Virus record (IMG/VR): IMGVR_UViG_3300042259_000159
Length of the DNA: 64,000 bases
Source: a virus
Strand: one strand, 5' to 3'
The notes below the pieces were generated by a model. That model was not told where the DNA came from. It saw only the letters and a list, made by a program, of their open reading frames with translations, and did not search any database. A program made the position numbers and the translations under genes. This document shows, piece by piece, positions 1 through 64,000 of this stretch; positions within the stretch are counted from its first letter, which is position 1, and every line of letters begins with the position of its first letter.

Positions 1-407
1 GTATGGGTGTTAAGTATCAACTCGTTCGCGTGAACAACACCGTTGCGCTTTTTCTGGGCCAATCCGCCGTCGTCCATGTACCAAATGGCGATGTGGATTG
101 CAGACAGCCTGTTCAGGAGTTTCCGGTTGTAGATGTTTTTATAGCCATCTTTGTATAATATCCTTCTCAGTGTTTTACCCCATTTAGTTGTGCTTATATA
201 AGTTCGGTAGCTATCAAATCCGTTATTATTTTTGTAGGTGATGTCAGAGCACTTCACCCCTTCGGAACGTAGATACGCGATTTTCCACAGCAAGTAATCT
301 TTTTGAGCTGCGCAGTGCAGTATCGATCCGCTCCCAGTTTTACCTAAGTGTCCGTCGCCCAAGATGACACTTAGTAATGCAGTTCGTGAACTTCTGTTAA
401 ACTTCAT
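1..407 (-). CDS. LAGLIDADG homing endonuclease (3' end cut by window edge)
   Basis: Minus-strand ORF with ATG at 405-407 and RBS (rc of aagcctcc 411-418). Hand translation MKFNRSSRTALLSVILGDGHLGK...IAIWYMDDGGL shows two LAGLIDADG-type motifs. Not in the ORF track because it runs off the window. Confidence 0.7.
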   Translation of the reverse strand, partial: MKFNRSSRTALLSVILGDGHLGKTGSGSILHCAAQKDYLLWKIAYLRSEGVKCSDITYKNNNGFDSYRTYISTTKWGKTLRRILYKDGYKNIYNRKLLNRLSAIHIAIWYMDDGGLAQKKRNGVVHANELILNTH

Positions 408-463
408 GTTAAGCCTCCAAGCACTGTTGTGCTGTTTAAGTCGACATTTAGTCGTTGCACCTT

Positions 464-955
464 CTACCATAAGTAGTTACGGGAGATGTCCTTATAAGAT
501 CTCCGACTACGGATGTCGTCGTAGATATGCTTAGGTATCCCCATAAGGTCTCGAATTTCCTTTGCAGAGTGTCTGCCATCGGCAATCATCTGGCAAATTC
601 TATGCACCTTGTCATCAGGGAGTGTGCTATGTGGACGCTTGCACAACTTGTTCTTGAATGCGTGCTTCCGATTTTCAGATGGCGTCACCCACTCAAGATT
701 GTTCTTGTGGTTATCAATCTTAATCCCATTCTTATGATTGACAACTTTGCCTTCTTCGTAGCCTTGCACATATGTGTAAGCCACAAGTTTATGCACAAAG
801 ATACGAAGAGTCTTTCCTTCAGAGGAGAGGGTTACTCGCTTGTAACCTGTTCTATTAAGGTCAGTGCGCAACACTCTTCCTGTTTCTGAATTTAAGACAA
901 CACCCTCTTCATTAACGAGGTACTTTTCAAAACCTTTTATTGCGACTGGTCTCAC
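464..955 (-). CDS. HNH homing endonuclease
   Basis: Track ORF 163 aa. N-terminal FEKYLVNEEGVV (NUMOD4-like) and HNH core VNHKNGIKIDNHKNNLEWVTPSEN. Confidence 0.8.
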   Translation of the reverse strand: MRPVAIKGFEKYLVNEEGVVLNSETGRVLRTDLNRTGYKRVTLSSEGKTLRIFVHKLVAYTYVQGYEEGKVVNHKNGIKIDNHKNNLEWVTPSENRKHAFKNKLCKRPHSTLPDDKVHRICQMIADGRHSAKEIRDLMGIPKHIYDDIRSRRSYKDISRNYLW

Positions 956-1023
956 ACCTAATCTCCTTATAGTAGCTTGGCTCAGGATTGTCTCTGAGAG
1001 AGTTCCCCTGAATTCACACAGTT

Positions 1024-2010
1024 TTACGCGGGCATCAATTTACCCGCCCCGAAGTAGAAGGTCTCTCCTAGTCTTCGTCCTCTTGTGGCTTTTGTCAGGC
1101 CAAGCCAAGGCCACGGCCTTCCGTATTCGGGCTTAGTTCTTGCTTTTTCTTTTAAGGTAGAACCCTTGACGATACGGGTGTTCTTTGGGACTACAGTCTT
1201 CCACTTGGTGGCTTGCAGACACTCCGCTACCTTCCCTTCGAGGAGACAGTCATTAACATCCTTACACGGAAGCTCAGCAACATGCCCTCCGGGGAAGATA
1301 CGAACAAACTCTTCTGCTGCTTTCTGACCGGGTTCGTCCATGTCAGGGACGTACACTACCTTCTCAAACAGCTGACGAATCTTGTTTGCATGTTGGAGAA
1401 CAGCCTTCTGCACACTTCCTGCTCCTGAAGGAAGGCTCACAACAGCAGGAATGAGATGTTTGTATTGGGTGTTTGCTACGCTATCCCTGAGCATTTGATA
1501 CAAAGACATTGCATCAATCTCACCTTCGGTGATGTACAGAGTCTTTGCTCCAGCTGTGATAGCTTGTTTCCAACCAAAGAACGAAGCCCCTTTCAAAGAG
1601 CCTATAGCCCACATCCTCTTATCTTTCAGGATTCGTGCTTTATAAGCAGTGAGCTGCCCTCCTTCATCCGTGTAAGGAAAGAATACGATGTCAGGAGTAG
1701 AGCCATCCATAGGTGAGACACCTACTTTGACATTGAAATGCTCAAGGGTTTCTTTCCTCAGCTTTCTTGAAGGAAGAGGATGAGAGAGAAGACTAATTAT
1801 GTGTTTAATTTCTTCGTCTATCTCTTCCTTCGTCTTTTTAGCCACTACAGGAGTGTAGCCTTCAGGTTTGTCCTTATAGGGGTCAGGGACATATTTTCCA
1901 CAAGAGAAACAGTAGCCATCATAGCTGCCATCTTCTTGTAAAAACACTTGTAAACCTGAAGCTGTTCCACAAGAGTGAGGCAATTTTTCTACGCATACTC
2001 CTCGTTTCAT
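1024..2010 (-). CDS. DNA primase (zinc-binding domain + TOPRIM)
   Basis: Track ORF 328 aa. Cys-rich N-terminus (CGTASG...CFSCGKY) and TOPRIM acidic motifs (EGEIDAMS, DMDEPGQKAA). Confidence 0.75.
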   Translation of the reverse strand: MKRGVCVEKLPHSCGTASGLQVFLQEDGSYDGYCFSCGKYVPDPYKDKPEGYTPVVAKKTKEEIDEEIKHIISLLSHPLPSRKLRKETLEHFNVKVGVSPMDGSTPDIVFFPYTDEGGQLTAYKARILKDKRMWAIGSLKGASFFGWKQAITAGAKTLYITEGEIDAMSLYQMLRDSVANTQYKHLIPAVVSLPSGAGSVQKAVLQHANKIRQLFEKVVYVPDMDEPGQKAAEEFVRIFPGGHVAELPCKDVNDCLLEGKVAECLQATKWKTVVPKNTRIVKGSTLKEKARTKPEYGRPWPWLGLTKATRGRRLGETFYFGAGKLMPA

Positions 2011-2093
2011 ACCTCCTCCATGTTAGAAGTTAAAGGGGGAATTAACTTCCCCCTATTTATATATACGTCACAGACGAGAGAATGTGACAATTT

Positions 2094-2879
2094 TTATTGC
2101 ATATAATTCCGAATTGCTCTAGCGTATGCTTCAAGAGCAGTGCCCATAATGCCCGGAGCAGTGTTCACTTCCAAGACGTAAGCCATATTCGCCCGCTGGT
2201 TGTAGATAACATCCACTGCTCCGAAGTCAAGCCCAAGAGCTTTAACAGCGAGGAGAGCCTGATTCTGAACTTGGAAGGGGCAGGTGTCATTTACGTCAGC
2301 TCCGTCTTTGTCAGTCCGAACAAAGATGAATCCCTTCTCATGGTTGCGGATACGCCAATCCACATTCTTAATATTCATTTCGGGATTGAGGGCTTTCCTC
2401 GTGATGTCGATGATTCTCCCGTTAAAGACATGGACACGATACTCCTGCTTTTTCTTGATGTAAGCAGTGTAGAGAGGAGCCTCAGGAACTTTGCCATGAG
2501 GCTCCACCAATTCAATTCCCTTTCCGCCATACCCAACGAGAGTGTGACGAACGACTACACAACCTCCGTTTTCCGCCCACAACTGAGCTCTGTCTCGGTC
2601 GATAGTGAAGGCGGGAAAATTGACATACTCTTCATCTTCAAACACTTCAAAAGTACGAAGCTTGTTGGAAGCAATTGCCACTGCCTCAAAGTCGTTAAGC
2701 ACACGACAATCCTCAGGGATGTGCTTAGGACGGGTAGAGCAGCCCCAGTTGAGCACCATTTTATCGGGGGTCCATTTCCACTTGCTGCGTTCAGCTCGAA
2801 TGCGGAGAACACCCAATTCAGTAGCAAGGGCTTTAGCGGACGTAGACTCCATTTTGTAAGGCAGAATAAACAGTTTCAT
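2094..2879 (-). CDS. ATP-grasp family ligase
   Basis: Track ORF 261 aa. Glycine-rich loop GYGGKGIE and C-terminal VLEVNTAPG typical of the ATP-grasp fold. First gene of a tightly packed minus-strand cluster. Confidence 0.75.
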   Translation of the reverse strand: MKLFILPYKMESTSAKALATELGVLRIRAERSKWKWTPDKMVLNWGCSTRPKHIPEDCRVLNDFEAVAIASNKLRTFEVFEDEEYVNFPAFTIDRDRAQLWAENGGCVVVRHTLVGYGGKGIELVEPHGKVPEAPLYTAYIKKKQEYRVHVFNGRIIDITRKALNPEMNIKNVDWRIRNHEKGFIFVRTDKDGADVNDTCPFQVQNQALLAVKALGLDFGAVDVIYNQRANMAYVLEVNTAPGIMGTALEAYARAIRNYMQ

Positions 2880-2889
2880 TTTTTGTCTC

Positions 2890-3714
2890 CTAGATGTCTA
2901 TTAAAGGTTCGTCGATAAACACTGCGTTCATAAAGTCAATGCCATTGACAATAGAGTAGCAGCGATAAAGCTGTCTTTTGAACGAAGCGTTAAAGTCTTC
3001 GTAGGCAAGAGCGAAGGGAAACACTTCCCTCGTAAAGGCTATTGCGTCTTTAGACGCTTCTTTCAGGAGGGCATGAGGGTCTTCAAAAGTACAAGCTTTC
3101 TCCCGAAGAGAGAGGAGAAGGCGGAGCCACTGCTCAATCACTGCGATGTCCACAGTCCCACGCATAGCTCTGAACTCAATCGAACCATACTGAGGCGTAG
3201 CCTTGATGTTCATGCTTGCATAACGAATGTCGTTGTCATCCAAGGCATTAAAGTTCATGCTTTTTGCAAGACCCTCCAGTTTGAAGATGAGTCCTTCCGC
3301 ATCAAAGGAAGAGAGGCAGAAGAGATTGCCTTTACGCGTTTCTCCACAAAACTCCAGAAGAGCGTCTTCATAAAGCAAGTAGAGTATAACAAAGTTGAAC
3401 CACTGGCCCACTGTCAATTTTTGAACGTTAATATGAACATGAACAGATGTTCTGTCCGAGAGGACAACATCCGCTCTCCTGAGATGTTCTCTCAGCATAC
3501 GGAGCCGACGACAAGCCCCCGGGAAGCTGATGGGTTGAGGAAGGACGTATTCCTTCGGGTCATGCCCCCCAATAGGACGAAGAGAAGGTTCGATATGTAC
3601 CTGCCACCCATTCACCTGACGGGGGAGGTCACGACCTTCCACCTCTATTTCAATGCCAATGTCCCCATTCTTAGGGACCAACCCCAGCATATCGGCAATA
3701 GTTATTTCAGCCAT
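2890..3714 (-). CDS. putative amidoligase (glutamine-synthetase-like COOH-NH2 ligase)
   Basis: Track ORF 274 aa. N-terminal GIEIEVEG motif resembles the E-x-E nucleotide/metal site of GS-like amidoligases. Assignment from motif recall only. Confidence 0.45.
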   Translation of the reverse strand: MAEITIADMLGLVPKNGDIGIEIEVEGRDLPRQVNGWQVHIEPSLRPIGGHDPKEYVLPQPISFPGACRRLRMLREHLRRADVVLSDRTSVHVHINVQKLTVGQWFNFVILYLLYEDALLEFCGETRKGNLFCLSSFDAEGLIFKLEGLAKSMNFNALDDNDIRYASMNIKATPQYGSIEFRAMRGTVDIAVIEQWLRLLLSLREKACTFEDPHALLKEASKDAIAFTREVFPFALAYEDFNASFKRQLYRCYSIVNGIDFMNAVFIDEPLIDI

Positions 3715-4268
3715 TCTTCTCCCACCACCTCTTTGATGTAGTTAGCATAGAAGTTGTCTGCCACAATAAACTTTTCTTCATCAATATCTGCCACAGGCAT
3801 AGTCCGATAGAAAAGACTCCGCTCCCCAATAGCGAATTCCCTATGGAAGGCTATGCTTCTTCTTCGAGAACGGTCTTTCTCAAAGCATTCTTCCACCGTA
3901 GGGTAGTCGGCTATAATGGTCTTTGCCAAGTCTCTTACATTGGGTTGAGCACTTATCCCTACATAGTTGGAACGAAGGTCCAGACGGTCAAGAACCAATC
4001 CTTGCTTCTGCTTCCGATGGGGCCAGCGAGCCACATACATTGAGACCCCAACTAGGGTGTTCACATAGCCCAAAGGAGGAGAGGCAAAGTCCCATCCCTC
4101 ATCCCTAATGTGGATGCGAGCATCTTCTCCTTCTTCATCAAGAATGTCATACCCATTAGCAAATCCATCTTCCACATGCCGGATGTAGAAGGGGCTGCCA
4201 TTATACCTCACTACCGTTCCTGCCAGACGCATATTAGCGTCATGGTCGTTATTAAATTTCAACAGCAT
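3702..4268 (-). CDS. hypothetical protein within amidoligase cluster
   Basis: Track ORF 188 aa; overlaps neighbours by a few codons, consistent with operon packing. Confidence 0.5.
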   Translation of the reverse strand: MLLKFNNDHDANMRLAGTVVRYNGSPFYIRHVEDGFANGYDILDEEGEDARIHIRDEGWDFASPPLGYVNTLVGVSMYVARWPHRKQKQGLVLDRLDLRSNYVGISAQPNVRDLAKTIIADYPTVEECFEKDRSRRRSIAFHREFAIGERSLFYRTMPVADIDEEKFIVADNFYANYIKEVVGEEWLK

Positions 4269-5043
4269 GGGGCACTCCCAGATTGTACTTCTTAATAAGA
4301 GCGACTGCCGAATCTACATCCGAAGTGTTGATGATGTTGGTGATGTCTCCCTCTTCCTCAGCCAAGTCTCTTCCTGCAAGCAAGTCAACAACAGCTTGTC
4401 GGGAAGCGGAGAACACCCAACGCATCAGACGCTCTTCTTTAAGCCAAGCATTGGACAGAGTGCGATATTCCATGCCGTAAGGCTTAACACGAAAAGCCCC
4501 TGCCTTCCCGTAGAGTTCTCTCCTTTTGGTGTCCTTGTCGAACAGAAGAGAAGGCAATCCAAGGTAGAAATCCAGCTGCCGTGCAAGCTGACACGAAGCA
4601 AGGAAAGCTCCGAAGTCGTTCACATCATGCTCCATATAGCCGATATGAACATGCCCAGCAGCAGTGCGGAAGTCTCGATTACCGTCAGGAGAAGGGTTGA
4701 TGTCCTGCGTCCACCCATTGTAGTCGGGGTCACACCCCAATTCAAGAGCGGCAGGAGGCTGAGTAGCCATATACTCCTTGCCAAAATGAGCCACAGGCTC
4801 AATGACAATTTCCTCCTTCACCATACGACGAAGCTGAGCGAATACATGCTCAATGTTGCTGACGAAGGTGTTTTCATCAGCTGCCGGCTCAATGTTAAAC
4901 TCAAGAGCCATACCATCCACCTGTACAGCCCCCTTCTCAACAGGGAAAGGGGCTTCCTTAGTCCCGGGAATGAGGCCGTAGCCGGAGATGAACTTCCCAT
5001 TGTCCTTCACAAACAGTTCGGGGTCGGTGCCAATGTATATCAT
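4252..5043 (-). CDS. hypothetical protein, possible second COOH-NH2 ligase-like enzyme
   Basis: Track ORF 263 aa (MIYIGTDPELFV...AAGHVHIGY). Sits between the amidoligase-like gene and the amidotransferases. Family assignment tentative. Confidence 0.4.
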   Translation of the reverse strand: MIYIGTDPELFVKDNGKFISGYGLIPGTKEAPFPVEKGAVQVDGMALEFNIEPAADENTFVSNIEHVFAQLRRMVKEEIVIEPVAHFGKEYMATQPPAALELGCDPDYNGWTQDINPSPDGNRDFRTAAGHVHIGYMEHDVNDFGAFLASCQLARQLDFYLGLPSLLFDKDTKRRELYGKAGAFRVKPYGMEYRTLSNAWLKEERLMRWVFSASRQAVVDLLAGRDLAEEEGDITNIINTSDVDSAVALIKKYNLGVPHAVEI

Positions 5044-55122: not shown

Positions 55123-55206
55123 TGGTAGGAGAAGAGAGATTCGAACTCTCAAGGAATAATCCGTCGAGGCTTAAACTCGATGTGTTTACCATTTCACCAT
55201 TCTCCC
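55123..55206 (-). tRNA. tRNA-Leu (anticodon TAA), type II, CCA encoded
   Basis: Hand-folded cloverleaf: acceptor GGGAGAA/TTCTCCT, anticodon stem TCGAG/CTCGA with loop TTTAAGC, long variable arm, T-arm GAGAG-TTCGAAT-CTCTC. Confidence 0.7.
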
Positions 55207-55245
55207 GTATTTTTTATCTACCATTCCGCCATTCCCGCATTTATT

Positions 55246-55323
55246 TGGTACCCACTGTGAGATTCGAACCCACACTAATCAGTTTCTAAGACTGATGCCT
55301 CTGCCAAGTTGGGCTATACCAGT
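55246..55323 (-). tRNA. aberrant tRNA-like gene (anticodon TAG, type I architecture, poorly paired acceptor stem)
   Basis: Good D-, anticodon (TCAGT-CTTAGAA-ACTGA) and T-arms, but 5' acceptor ACTGGTA mispairs with the adjacent 3' strand AGTGGGT. Confidence 0.4.
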
Positions 55324-55581
55324 ATTATGCTTATTATTTTATTTTGAAAGGCCATATGTATACACATATATATATATACATATATATATGTATAGAGCAA
55401 CCAAAATGGTTAAATAAAAAGGTGTTTTGTGGAGACACCAAACTCCTCCAGTTTTAGTGATCTGGAAACAATAAGCGGCGCAGGTGCTCTTTAAAACACG
55501 TGCTACCAAGCGTATAAATTGTCTAGGGGATTTCACCAAACACATTATGTTATTGGAGGGATCTTTCCCTAGACTCAGTAA

Positions 55582-55654
55582 AGCTCCTGACAGGACTTGA
55601 ACCCGCAACCGGCTGATTACAAATCAGCTGCTCTGCCAGTTGAGCTACAGGAGC
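55582..55654 (-). tRNA. tRNA-Thr (anticodon TGT), no encoded CCA
   Basis: Acceptor GCTCCTG/CAGGAGC, D-arm GCTC...GAGC, anticodon loop TTTGTAA, T-loop TTCAAGT. Confidence 0.7.
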
Positions 55655-55658
55655 AGAA

Positions 55659-55730
55659 CAGAGGGAGAAGGATTCGAACCTTCGAATGACGGGACCAAAA
55701 CCCGTTGCCTTACCGCTTGGCTACCCCTCT
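55659..55730 (-). tRNA. tRNA-Gln (anticodon TTG), no encoded CCA
   Basis: Acceptor AGAGGGG/TCCCTCT, anticodon stem ACGGG/CCCGT with loop TTTTGGT, T-arm GAAGG-TTCGAAT-CCTTC. Confidence 0.7.
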
Positions 55731-55738
55731 AAATTTTT

Positions 55739-55815
55739 TGGCTCCGGCGGCAGGATTTGAACCTACATTCGCAATGGTTAACAGCCATTTGCCTTACCAA
55801 TTCGGCGACACCGGA
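55739..55815 (-). tRNA. tRNA-Asn (anticodon GTT), CCA encoded
   Basis: Acceptor TCCGGTG/CGCCGGA, anticodon stem AATGG/CCATT with loop CTGTTAA, T-arm GTAGG-TTCAAAT-CCTGC. Confidence 0.7.
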
Positions 55816-55860
55816 ATGAACTTTTTATTTGTTATCAGCATTGTTTTGCTTTATTTTAAA

Positions 55861-55939
55861 TGGTCTCGGTGATTAGATTTGAACTAATGATTATTCCTGC
55901 TCCCAAAGCAGGTGCCATACCAAGCTAGGCGACACCGAG
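55861..55939 (-). tRNA. tRNA-Pro (anticodon TGG), CCA encoded
   Basis: Acceptor CTCGGTG/CACCGAG, anticodon stem CCTGC/GCAGG with loop TTTGGGA, T-arm ATTAG-TTCAAAT-CTAAT. Confidence 0.65.
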
Positions 55940-58022: not shown

Positions 58023-58109
58023 TGGTGCCCAATGCAGGACTCGAACCTGCACGCCATTTCAGGCAGGAGGGCTTAAACCTCGTGTGTCTACCAATTCCAC
58101 CAATCGGGC
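58023..58109 (-). tRNA. tRNA-Leu (anticodon TAA), type II, CCA encoded
   Basis: Acceptor GCCCGAT/ATTGGGC, anticodon loop TTTAAGC, long variable arm, T-arm GCAGG-TTCGAGT-CCTGC. Confidence 0.65.
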
Positions 58110-58118
58110 TAAAATCTT

Positions 58119-58202
58119 TGGTGCCTCAGACAGGATTCGAACCTGCACGGATCTCTCCACTTGGTCCTAAGCCAAGCGTGTCTGCCATTCCACCACTGAG
58201 GC
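58119..58202 (-). tRNA. tRNA-Leu (anticodon TAG), type II, CCA encoded
   Basis: Acceptor GCCTCAG/CTGAGGC, anticodon stem CTTGG/CCAAG with loop CTTAGGA, long variable arm, T-arm GCAGG-TTCGAAT-CCTGT. Confidence 0.7.
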
Positions 58203-60713: not shown

Positions 60714-61423
60714 TTAGATAGTAAACAGTTTTTCAACACCTTTCTTGCTTCCCGTGTTCTTTGTCAGGCTGCTTACAATTTCTTTTTTCCAAATGCAAGT
60801 AAAATCTTCTGGAGCATTATATTCTGAAACAAACACCTTATGTCCCTCATTAGCCTTATCTCTGCACCACTGCCAAAACAACTCATGGTCAAAATCATTA
60901 GAGTACTTTGTTGTCCCTGAATAGGGCGGATCACAGTAGATTAAGCTGTTACTGGGGATATGTAGCTCATCATAAGGACAACACAAAAATTCTACATTTT
61001 GAATTAGCGAGGACTGTTTTATTGCTGATTGCTTACTACGTTTTGTTTGTATTATCATGTTTTCAATATCACCTTTTGTTCCTGCTTTGTCCCGCCTATA
61101 CCCCCCAAAAAATTTACCACCAAAAGACATTGAAAATGCTGTAAATCCAGTTAAACCATCAATATTTTTGTGTTTTTTCATTGAATTGTACATATCTTCT
61201 GTAATAATTTCAGGAATACTTTTTGGTGCATCGCGTATAAGTTTTAATGCTTCTATTACATACGGGCTGCAATGGCGGCCCCAATACGATTCCCATCAAC
61301 CTTATCAATCATGTTTCCACCTCCAACAAACGGTTCAACCCACCACTGGTCAGGTTTTCTTTCTGCAAGCATAATTGGGAGGATATACTTTGCTATTCTG
61401 TTTTTACTTCCCATGTATTTCAT
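60714..61423 (-). pseudogene. Dam-like N6-adenine DNA methyltransferase requiring a -1 frameshift
   Basis: N-terminal piece MKYMGSKNRIAKY...EPFVGGGNMIDKV (ATG 61421-61423 after AGGAGG) stops at 61256; the DPPY-containing C-terminal part (track ORF 60714-61193) continues in the -1 frame as ...PYVIEALKLIRD. Frames diverge near a GGGGCC run around 61255-61270. Confidence 0.55.
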
Positions 61424-61772
61424 ACTTACCTCCTGTTTTTGTTTTAGTTGTAAGGTGCTTTTACCTGTCAATATCAAACTACCCCTATTCCCCCTGTTTG
61501 TCAATACCTTATTCTTATCTAAACATAAGATATATATATTATATATATATTCTTTATATAATATAAATATATATACTTTATATATAGTATATTTATATAA
61601 TATATATATGTATATAATATATATACTCCTACTCACTACGAGACACATACATAATATATACATTAACCCTTCCTGCAAAGGAAGCCGTAGGATACCATAA
61701 AAAAGAGATTTTGTCAAGCATTATTTTAAGAAATGTTAAAAATAATTTCCTAACCTAATCTCTATTTTTTAC

Positions 61773-61821: not shown

Positions 61822-62016
61822 ATGGAGGAAAATATGATATACACATACAGGTGTTCAATCTGCAACAAGCTTTTTACCTCGCACGAGGATGTATACGATG
61901 TATACTTAGAAAGCTTTGTTTGTCCTGAATGTCTGCGTGAGGGAAATATCTCCGCTGTCTATGGCGAGGATTTCTTAGATTCGCTGGACATGTTCGACAA
62001 CCCAGAAGATCTTTAA
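61822..62016 (+). CDS. small zinc-ribbon protein
   Basis: Track ORF 64 aa; CSICN...CPEC. Confidence 0.45.
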   Translation: MEENMIYTYRCSICNKLFTSHEDVYDVYLESFVCPECLREGNISAVYGEDFLDSLDMFDNPEDL

Positions 62017-62051
62017 TAAAGTATTTTATCAAAAAATAATTAAATAAAGAC

Positions 62052-62080
62052 TTGACAAATGGTTAAAAGTGTGTTATAAT
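62052..62080 (+). promoter_or_regulatory. sigma70 consensus promoter
   Basis: TTGACA, 17 nt spacer, TATAAT; upstream of 62220-62540. Confidence 0.5.
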
Positions 62081-62219
62081 AGGTTTTGAATTAATAATTA
62101 AAAATGATAATGAATTTCATTGTCTTTTGTAATCTTCTAAGATGTCTTAGATAGGCATCCGAAAAGTATAGGGGAGTTTCCCTCCTTTTCTCCCCTATAA
62201 AATATTAACAGGAGGTAAT

Positions 62220-62540
62220 ATGGCTAGGCCGAAAGGTACAACAAAAGAGGTTCTTATGAACAGGAAGCTTCTTGCACAACTAGACATTATCAAAGAGAAG
62301 GTGTCTGATGATGTTGTAGAGGCTTATGAAACACTGGCCTTCTTGATGAGGGATAAGGCATCCTCTTCAAGTGTAAGAAAGGGTTCAGCGGAACAAATCA
62401 TTGGTCTCCACAAATCTTTTTGCAAGGAAGCAAGCGGTGATGTTGAGGATGTAGAGGAGGTAATGGAAGACGGTAGGACTTCTGGCGGGGGTATGGGTAA
62501 AATACTCAGCCTGAAAATGGTAGGAGGAGGCAATGACTAA
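62220..62540 (+). CDS. hypothetical protein (possible small terminase subunit or first terminase exon)
   Basis: Track ORF 106 aa with RBS aacaggaggt; lies directly upstream of the intron-interrupted large terminase segments. Confidence 0.4.
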   Translation: MARPKGTTKEVLMNRKLLAQLDIIKEKVSDDVVEAYETLAFLMRDKASSSSVRKGSAEQIIGLHKSFCKEASGDVEDVEEVMEDGRTSGGGMGKILSLKMVGGGND

Positions 62541-62759
62541 ACTCGCACCTGCATCAAGAAAGCAAGAAATGATGCTGGGTGCTGATGCCCAAATGACGGT
62601 AATTGGTAGATAACTGCCCTGTACACAGGAAACTGTGTATGTGTATCTCATTAAAACGGGGAACCCTAAGTGTACACGCATAAGGGAATCCCGTGACTAC
62701 GCAAGCCGAAAAAGGAGTAGGCATGAAAAATTTAGGATTTATGGGTTTTGATAAGTGTG

Positions 62760-63037
62760 CGGATATGTTCTGACCTAGAGAAGGGTTTTTCATGCTCTTC
62801 TACTGTAAGGAGGAATAAGGTTGGAACAAGCACGGTACATAGGATCTATAGAAGAAAAACGCATACTTCCATATCTAAGAATTTTTCTTGGGAGTAGTTG
62901 TAACGACTAGTTCATAAGAACGTAAGACACAAGTAGTCCTTAAGTGCAAGGACAAGGTGTTTGAAACATGAGACACTCTAACAAGTAATGTTGAGGGTGA
63001 AGAGATAGTCTGAACTGTATAGAAATATACAGCAGGA
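62760..63037 (+). mobile_element. group I intron core (candidate), copy 1
   Basis: R-like element gtaacgactagttc (62899-62914), S-like element gaagagatagtctgaac (about 62999-63016), P9-like hairpin ctgtatagaaatatacag (63015-63032). Boundaries not determined. Confidence 0.5.
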
Positions 63038-63350
63038 GAACATTTTAATGTTTTTCCGGCAGATGCCTTACGAACATCTGTGAACATTTTGGGTGCCGCA
63101 GGTTCGGGAAAGTCATACATAATGAATATGATACCTTTGAGGTATGTCGATTGCCCCAACTTTAGGGGGATTGTCTTCCGAAGGGAAACGACACAGCTTA
63201 CAGGTGAAGGGGGGATGTGGGATACAGCAACGGAGATATACTCTGAGCTGCCTAAAAATATCAGGCCCAAAATATTGAAACATAACCTGAGAATGATTTT
63301 TCCGAATGGGGCAAAAATTAAGTTTTCACACATGGAAAATGATAATGATT
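63038..63350 (+). CDS. terL: terminase large subunit, exon with Walker A
   Basis: Frame opens after the intron core; Walker A GAAGSGKSY. Exon ends are approximate because the reading frame stays open into the flanking intron sequence. Confidence 0.5.
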
Positions 63351-63585
63351 TCAGGAAACATCAAGGGTTAATTAGTAGCCCCTTGTGTTGGTGACAGCGC
63401 AAGCAAACTAACCTAATTCGGTGGAAGCCCAAACATGTAGGATGTGGGTGATACCGAGCAAGCCACGGCGTGTGTAACGACTAGTTCTTAGGAACGTAGG
63501 CCCAAGCGGGTCGAAACGGTTAGCATCTTATTAAGATGAAGATATAGTCTACTCTGCATGGAAACATGCAGCGGACACTTTATGT
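63350..63585 (+). mobile_element. group I intron core (candidate), copy 2
   Basis: R-like gtaacgactagttc (63474-63487), S-like gaagatatagtctac (about 63537-63551), P9-like hairpin ctgcatggaaacatgcag (63553-63570). Confidence 0.5.
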
Positions 63586-63594
63586 GTCGGGCAG

Positions 63595-63860
63595 ATGTTA
63601 GCGCCATCTGTTGAATATTATGTACAATATACCCTGATATGCTTTGATGAGGCAACACATTTCACTTTCCAACAAGTTGAATACTTAATGTCACGTATGA
63701 GAAGTAAAAGTAAGTATGCTTCTCGTATGGTTCTGTCGTGGATTACGCGACATGTATGGCGAAAGCTGTACTGGCAACTGTGTGAACTCAGGGAAACCTT
63801 AGCTGCTGCAATTGGGCAGAGGAAGAAGGCAATCCTGAGCGAAGCCTTCCCACCGGGAAG
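63595..63860 (+). CDS. terL: terminase large subunit, exon with Walker B
   Basis: Walker B ICFDEATHF shortly after the start of track ORF 63595-63888; 3' boundary approximate. Confidence 0.5.
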
Positions 63861-64000
63861 GAACGTGCAACGACCATCGAAAGCGTAACACCTGTTACAG
63901 TGAGTAGAGTACACCACACATGTGTGGTGGAAGCGCACAGCCCCTAACATGTAACGATGAGGGTGAAGATATGGTCTGAACCTACAGAAATGTAGAAAAA
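63860..64000 (+). mobile_element. group I intron core (candidate), copy 3, running off the window
   Basis: R-like gtgcaacgaccatcga (63864-63879), S-like gaagatatggtctgaac (63965-63981), P9-like hairpin ctacagaaatgtag (63982-63995). Confidence 0.45.

Follow-up and report, generated by a model that had tools for sequence, protein, structure and literature searches.

Why does the large terminase gene (terL) at the right-hand end of virus record IMGVR_UViG_3300042259_000159 fall apart into separate reading frames, and can its pieces still yield a working protein? The window, i.e. the whole stretch of 64,000 nucleotides (nt) analyzed here, ends inside this gene of an uncultured tailed phage. A preliminary description had proposed that the gene is fragmented by at least three group I intron cores. 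By sequence comparison we conclude, with high confidence, that this region holds the 5' portion of a functional terL interrupted by four group I introns, the fourth of which lies beyond the window, and that it would splice to a TerL protein of 499 amino acids (aa).

The gene does not begin at 62541, as first described, but at 62533, with an ATG that overlaps the stop codon of an upstream open reading frame (ORF). It continues past the window end, which truncates the third intron 23 nt short of its 3' end. The remainder was read on the JGI contig Ga0451648_000250 (locus L001), which is identical to the window across the whole 4863-nt overlap and then extends beyond it. The 5' splice sites were placed after the U that pairs with G in the P1 helix, and the 3' splice sites after a G. 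The resulting layout is given below, with coordinates past 64,000 as window equivalents and a slash marking an insertion site.

62220-62540, plus strand: upstream ORF of 106 aa, its stop overlapping the terL start (ATGACTAA); no Pfam match
62533-62607, plus strand: terL exon 1, 75 nt, 25 codons (MTKLAPASRKQEMMLGADAQMTVIG), last letters GGU
62608-63091, plus strand: intron I1, 484 nt, inside the Walker A codons (VIG/GAAGSGKS), 3' letter G
63092-63368, plus strand: terL exon 2, 277 nt, holding Walker A (GAAGSGKSY), 3' end ...CAAGGGU
63369-63622, plus strand: intron I2, 254 nt, no ORF, in phase 1 of a Leu codon, HQG(L)QYT
63623-63739, plus strand: terL exon 3, 117 nt, holding Walker B (LICFDEATHF), 3' end ...CUGUCGU
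63740-64023, plus strand: intron I3, 284 nt (the first 261 in the window; 3' end at L001 4886, 23 nt outside it), in phase 1 of a Cys codon, VLS(C)NPDPD
64024-64331 (L001 4887-5194): terL exon 4, 308 nt
64332-64613 (L001 5195-5476): intron I4, 282 nt, at LLRG/NW, 95.9 bits with the Rfam model RF00028
64614-65336 (L001 5477-6199): terL exon 5, 723 nt

The insertion sites of I1-I4 are thus the Walker A loop, the QGL motif before Walker B (the I2 site lying just 5' of the latter), CNPDPD, and GNW at the ATPase-nuclease boundary. Two codons are split by introns, Leu t/ta by I2 and Cys t/gt by I3. As the preliminary description had noticed, the motifs GAAGSGKSY and ICFDEATHF stand in separate ORFs (63080-63394 and 63595-63888, respectively); the two ORFs are in different frames. 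The same intron structure is present in independent JGI, Logan, ENA and IMG/VR assemblies, and it is therefore not an assembly artefact. The exact protein of the 62220-62540 ORF was found on seven public contigs, and its equivalent also precedes terL in the relatives L006 and L007; it is assigned, from position alone, as a putative small terminase subunit.

Once the four introns are removed, the exons sum to exactly 1500 nt and encode a 499-aa product with a single, terminal stop. The Pfam family Terminase_6N matches aa 24-278 of this product in a single stretch covering the full profile (E = 1.7e-30), and Terminase_6C also matches. At E <= 1e-10 the spliced TerL is matched by 908 proteins, the best homologue being an uninterrupted protein of 497 aa (P0001; 65% identity, 99% coverage). 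Comparison with intact homologues, which had been suggested as a check, supports the splicing model: an alignment of the spliced TerL with 12 intact TerL proteins (13 sequences) contains no gap at any of the four junctions, and the junction residues G25/G26, Q116-G117-L118, N158-D162 and G259-N260-W261 are invariant. Within exon 1, residues P6, S8, K10, Q11 and G25 are conserved among homologues. The protein is of the Terminase_6N type, nearest to those of uncultured phages and ~50% identical to those of rV5-like phages. Between the window strain and strain L010, the codon differences in the five exons comprise 32 synonymous and 8 non-synonymous ones, an excess that indicates purifying selection on the spliced frame.

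The intervening sequences were identified as group I introns with the Rfam covariance model RF00028 (gathering score 50 bits), as the preliminary description had proposed. A scan of the whole window returned I2 with 76.1 bits (63359-63571) and I3 with 77.5 bits (63728-63997), and a local scan returned I1 with 39.2 bits (E = 5e-8; 62875-63032). The low score of I1 is due to an insert of ~195 nt in its P6 loop; a natural insert-free allele of this intron (L005) scores 59.7 bits, above the threshold. RF00028 was the only match in an Rfam scan of 62000-64000 at E up to 1. A group II intron was considered and rejected, as no other Rfam family than RF00028 and no large ORF was found in 62000-64000. 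The insert and the core elements of I1 are located as follows, with the ribosome-binding site abbreviated RBS.

62701-62893, plus strand: P6-loop insert of I1, ~195 nt, keeping an RBS and an ATG (MKNLG...); no intact ORF
62900-62909, plus strand: R element of I1, J6/7 and P7 5' strand; counterparts at 63474-63483 (I2) and 63867-63876 (I3)
63000-63011, plus strand: S element of I1, J8/7 and P7 3' strand; counterparts at 63539-63550 (I2) and 63966-63977 (I3)

The R-like and S-like elements named in the preliminary description are all present: GTAACGACTA at 62900 and 63474 and GCAACGACCA at 63867 for the former, AAGAGATAGTCT at 63000, AAGATATAGTCT at 63539 and AAGATATGGTCT at 63966 for the latter. 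Each S element is followed, as described, by a GAAA-loop hairpin (63015-63032, 63554-63571 and 63982-63995). The roles of the R and S elements and the identity of the hairpin as P9 were taken from the RF00028 alignments. In the 64-kb window, exact copies of the core motifs occur in these three places and in one intron at the left edge, and nowhere else.

Each of the four terL introns can form the P1 helix with its U·G pair at the 5' splice site: GGU/AG with CUGCC in I1 (where the U of the exon-terminal GGU is the U of this pair), GGGU/UA with UAGCCC in I2, UGUCGU/G with CGCGACA in I3, and GCGGU with GGCCGC in I4. These pairings, taken from the sequence, were seen again in the minimum free energy (MFE) folds, where P1 of I1 appears as GGUAG/CUGCC, and in the covariance-model alignment. 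A terminal G (omega-G) stands at the frame-restoring 3' boundary in 4/4 terL introns and in 2/2 introns of the neighbouring portal gene. The MFE folds of I1 (both alleles), I2 and I3 contain P1, P2, P3, P4-P6, P7.1/P7.2, P8, P9, P9.1 and P9.2, with fold z-scores of -3.9 for the window I1, -5.6 for the L005 I1, -4.0 for I2 and -2.1 for I3. In the RNAalifold consensus, built from five related introns that belong to three phages, two-sided changes preserve the pairing at 39 of the 69 pairs; these compensated pairs fall in P2, P3, P4/P5, P7.1, P7.2, P8, P9, P9.1 and P9.2. The score excludes the P7 pseudoknot, which is aligned in the covariance-model output instead. Two hairpins between the P7 5' strand and the P3 3' strand, P7.1 and P7.2, appear in the folds of I1, I2 and I3, and both covary. 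By this signature and the P9.1/P9.2 extensions, the modelled terL introns are of the phage IA type; assignment to IA2 specifically is suggested by their likeness to the td intron.

That the introns splice, that they do so autocatalytically, and how they move is what we infer from the sequence. The terL pre-mRNA, a late transcript, would fold into group I cores, and exogenous guanosine would attack the phosphate after the U of the P1 U·G pair. The freed 5' exon would then attack after the terminal G of the intron, and the five exons would be joined into a 1500-nt mRNA encoding the 499-aa TerL. Exon skipping, as in SIOphi TerL and Twort orf142 (PMC11878797), is also possible by analogy, since exons 2 and 3 are both short and each lies between introns that resemble one another.

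The terL introns are not the only ones in this genome. The Mu-type portal gene next to terL carries two group I introns (RF00028, 51.5 and 93.0 bits on L001), and a third gene at the left edge of the window is also interrupted.

L001 6918-7858: portal intron I5, 941 nt, with a 200-aa LAGLIDADG_2 ORF in P8 (Pfam E = 1.8e-26)
L001 8085-8433: portal intron I6, 349 nt, ORF-less in the window strain
window 1-1066 (continuing on L013 1268-1402 and L012), minus strand: primase-helicase intron, inside the Walker A codons FYFGAG/VKMGKSE

In L010 and L011, I6 contains a 227-aa HNH_3 ORF (E = 1.4e-11) at the place where the window strain has 36 nt. The spliced portal protein has 490 aa (Portal_Mu, 5.8e-22) and aligns gap-free to the intron-less portal of L007 at 68% identity. 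The left-edge intron interrupts a Toprim primase-helicase gene (ORF 1024-2010, minus strand) and encodes two endonucleases: the HNH_3 ORF (464-955) belongs to the P6 region, and the LAGLIDADG_2 ORF, which extends from 406 past the window start, follows the P7 5' strand. Phage introns with two endonuclease genes are uncommon. Its core motifs match the I3/I4/I5 type, and its RF00028 score is only 20.6 bits because the two ORFs break the core and the window edge cuts it. An Rfam scan of 1-62500 had suggested that introns occur only in terL and the portal gene; this was refuted by the left-edge intron, which emerged from protein comparison and a local rescan. Since the standard scan missed this ORF-laden intron, intron counts from such scans are to be read as a minimum.

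Comparison with related phages shows that the introns are optional elements. The relative L007, whose TerL is 65% identical and whose gene order is the same, has no introns in terL and portal. L006 has two terL introns: one exactly at the I2 site, and one (1498-1778) in Walker A, 3 nt downstream of the I1 site (VIGG/AAGS), which belongs to a different intron lineage. At the I5 site this phage likewise carries an intron, without an ORF; its I3, I4 and I6 sites are empty. L010 and L011 (97% nucleotide identity) keep I1-I4 and lack I5, the portal exons being joined exactly at the predicted junction, so that the allele without this portal intron is found at 97-99% nucleotide identity. No related genome turned up when 62000-64000 and I3-I4 were compared by BLASTN with 50,697 phage records; the only matches, of 70-82% over 100-200 nt, were to introns of other phages. 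In an IMG/VR scan, the spliced TerL matched strains of this phage and nothing else (98-99%); the distant relatives came from the protein search. Several TerL homologues contain inteins in the same P-loop, as GGAAG/intein/SGKS or GGAAGGGK/intein/S or T (e.g., P0008, P0014, P0036 and P0022). Together with I1 and the L006 intron 3 nt away, they indicate that selfish elements have entered the P-loop codons of this TerL family on at least four separate occasions.

The P6-loop insert of I1 forms a series of nested alleles, measuring ~195 nt in the window strain, 88 nt in L010 and ~10 nt in L005. The deletion in L010 lies between TAGGAT direct repeats. Pfam comparison of the insert gave only non-significant helix-turn-helix-type matches (E about 0.1). 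Given that it retains an RBS and an ATG, sits in the P6 loop and occurs with nested deletions, the insert is probably the remnant of a decayed intron ORF, and the alleles look like stepwise loss of that ORF.

The preliminary description took a 23-nt block, GAGGGTGAAGANATRGTCTGAAC, said to be shared by three intron copies, as a sign that the introns had spread within terL. The block occurs only twice, at 62993 and 63959, even when 3 mismatches are allowed (0 expected by chance); the middle intron, I2, reads TTAAGATGAAGATATAGTCTACTC in its place, a diverged version. Moreover, it corresponds to the J8/7-P7 core in the Rfam consensus itself (UgAAGAUAUAGUCu). Being conserved across the whole family as part of the catalytic core, the block says nothing on spread within terL.

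Other similarities bear more directly on the idea that the terL introns are recent copies of each other, made by ectopic transposition inside the gene. I3 and I4 share 52 nt at 100% identity (63827-63878; L001 5280-5331), from P5/P6 to the P7 5' strand. The portal intron I5 matches this patch at 92-96%, and the best outside match in 50,697 phage records is 82%. In L010 the same C-to-T change is found in the patch of both I3 and I4, which indicates concerted evolution; a second patch difference in this strain turns U-A into U·G in the P6 stem. I1, I2 and I6 have a common P7/P7.1 stretch of 23-26 nt at 91-92%. Outside such patches, however, the introns are 70-77% alike in the core or not alignable. 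Their mutual similarity does not exceed that between the 3' half of I2 and the td intron region of T4-like Salmonella phages (81.6% over 97 nt) or that between I4 and the Twort and DSS3_VP1 introns (72-73%). I2 itself shows no difference between the window and L010 (0/254 nt), whereas the flanking exons differ by 2.6-3.3%; by our own calculation the chance of this is ~7e-4 at 2.8% divergence. The 52-nt patch thus suggests exchange between introns, and the patches and the invariant I2 agree better with piecemeal gene conversion among distinct introns of old standing, and with recent strain-to-strain exchange, than with wholesale recent duplication. We therefore regard the spread of copies within terL as unlikely, even though the shared patches speak for it.

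Another possibility is that the introns splice in the infected cell with the help of a maturase, such as the LAGLIDADG protein of the portal intron, or of host factors, and are not autocatalytic. The LAGLIDADG_2 ORF is encoded 1.9 kb downstream, and some TerL and polymerase introns of Bastillevirinae were spliced in vivo but not in vitro (PMC11878797). Nevertheless, the cores here have all their parts, and their scores are good with a model that derives mostly from self-splicing introns. Furthermore, L010 and L011 keep I1-I4 without the LAGLIDADG-bearing intron, so that this protein cannot be required. Dependence on a helper appears quite improbable on these grounds.

It is very unlikely that terL is a decaying pseudogene whose intron-like insertions no longer splice while another terminase packages the genome. 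The terL introns lack intact endonuclease genes, I1 holds ORF debris, and its score in the window is below the Rfam threshold, all of which would suit decay. Against this stand the predominance of synonymous exon changes between strains, the catalytic motifs, which are all intact, and the joined frame, which is free of stops. The intron helices keep pairing via compensatory changes, and no second terminase gene was seen beside the portal and capsid genes. Inteins at the same Walker A site of some TerL homologues notwithstanding, it is barely tenable that each segment yields its own polypeptide and that these associate or are joined as protein, since every intervening sequence reaches a stop in the exon frame after 0-49 codons, no Hint domain is present, exons 3 and 4 have no in-frame start codon or RBS of their own, and the split codons t/ta and t/gt can be repaired by RNA splicing only. 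The pseudogene, intein and split-gene readings were accordingly rejected.

Several observations weigh against a spliced, functional terL with mobile introns. The window I1 stays below the gathering score of Rfam and has a P1 of just 5 bp. In the exon frame a stop follows the 5' splice sites of I1, I2 and I4 within 0-8 codons; the frame of exon 3, by contrast, stays open for 49 codons into I3 (63740-63888), through P3-P7, and ribosomes running into this intron could disturb its folding. No full-length protein more than 65% identical to the spliced TerL was found in a collection of 5.8 billion proteins, and hence no assembled spliced terL transcript is on record. Current mobility of the terL introns is conjecture, as none of them carries an intact homing endonuclease: I2, I3 and I4 are ORF-less, and I1 has only its ~195-nt remnant.

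The introns occupy the best-conserved codons of the ATPase and linker, as elements propagated by homing endonucleases typically do. In the spliced-gene reading, which we prefer, the terL introns, having lost endonuclease genes of their own, probably persist by vertical descent together with co-conversion or recombination with endonuclease-bearing neighbours, namely the LAGLIDADG and HNH ORFs in the portal introns of this phage and its strains. A tentative extension of this reading, possible though doubtful, is that the packaging module is an 'intron island' that evolves as a unit, with six group I introns in the 5 kb of terL and portal. Long co-conversion tracts, initiated by the I5 LAGLIDADG or the I6 HNH endonuclease, would bring the ORF-less terL introns into co-infecting relatives whose alleles lack them. 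The introns would also swap segments among themselves by ectopic gene conversion; hints of this are the identical I3/I4 patch and the absence of strain differences in I2. If this is true, the island would be a weapon of interference competition between close strains and not a set of independent parasites.

Several other features of the window and genome were recorded. The window has a GC content of 42.4%, and the genome extends beyond the 72.5 kb examined. A 70,213-bp JGI contig was considered as a circular permutation of the window that would cover it completely; this was dropped, as the window start is not in the examined part. TTGACA-N17-TATAAT-like promoters are located at ~61775 and ~62051, upstream of the packaging genes. 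On the minus strand at 60714-61717 is a D12-class adenine methyltransferase gene (weak PF02086 match) that is split over two successive ORFs, the frame breaking near 61195-61275. This break recurs in the independent assemblies L001, L003 and L004 and is thus probably real, reflecting a pseudogene or a recoding site. Between the methyltransferase and a small zinc-ribbon-like ORF (61822-62016) is a ~140-nt AT-rich low-complexity tract of the (TATATA)n-like kind (61500-61640). Eight tRNA genes form two clusters on the minus strand, 55126-55939 and 58026-58202 (RF00005, 37.8-66.3 bits); tRNA gene clusters are typical of larger virulent phages. Genes for a glutamine amidotransferase, a COOH-NH2 ligase and an amidoligase-like protein adjoin the primase-helicase gene at ~2090-5040 on the minus strand (L012 1-3862), their labels being the Pfam tags of the public contig.

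Gene callers fragment terL into seemingly unrelated pieces of 104, 92 and 241 aa, so that in all public copies of this phage the gene most used as a marker in phage classification is either overlooked or incomplete. Near-identical strains from public metagenomes differ in the presence of introns and of endonuclease genes and in the extent of intron-ORF decay. Gain, degeneration and loss, as stages of the homing cycle, are all represented in this strain set, which offers a natural test system for the co-conversion of ORF-less introns.

Among known systems, the T4-type introns (td, nrdB and nrdD/sunY; IA2) share with the terL introns the P7.1/P7.2 hairpins and the ORF position in the P6 loop, and the early stops after the 5' splice sites of I1, I2 and I4 are a further T4-like trait. 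In T4, there is one intron per gene, the genes belong to nucleotide metabolism, and each intron has, or recently had, its own endonuclease.

Group I introns in terL have been shown to splice in Bastillevirinae and in the Shewanella phage KASIA (PMC11878797, PMC8541194). Bacillus phages of the Bastillevirinae (e.g., SIOphi, phiAGATE) can have 2-3 group I introns per terL, with splicing both in vitro and in vivo and exon skipping between neighbouring introns (PMC11878797). They resemble the present case in the target gene family, in the presence of several introns per terL and in the invasion of conserved DNA-metabolism and packaging genes. In contrast, here there are four introns in one terL and no intact endonuclease gene among them, and the phage lineage is different.

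The orf142 of Staphylococcus phage Twort has three group I introns with proven splicing (Landthaler and Shub 1999, as cited in PMC11878797). The likeness lies in several short ORF-less introns within one late structural gene, and the Twort intron region matches I4 at 71.6% over ~190 nt; the Twort target is a tail tube gene, whereas here it is the terminase. In crAss-like phages of the Zeta group, core genes are split into up to five fragments, with up to 14 introns per genome (PMC7886860). In these phages, too, structural and packaging genes are split by many group I introns per genome, but those introns were recognised mainly via endonuclease domains and stop codons are recoded, whereas in the present phage the code is standard and the ribozymes are identified. 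The lysin intron of Streptococcus thermophilus phages shows natural internal deletions that remove the ORF and leave the ribozyme (Foley et al. 2000, as cited in PMC11878797 and PMC8541194), much like the I1 insert series; it differs in gene and host, and no I1 with a full-length ORF was found here.

The terL introns are therefore a known type of selfish element in phage genes in an unusually dense case, and they leave the current understanding of group I introns unchanged. This terL, by its four introns, matches or exceeds the highest reported count that we found (2-3, in Bastillevirinae; PMC11878797). With the terL and portal introns and the two-endonuclease intron of the primase-helicase gene, this phage is among the more intron-dense phages known outside the crAss-like group.

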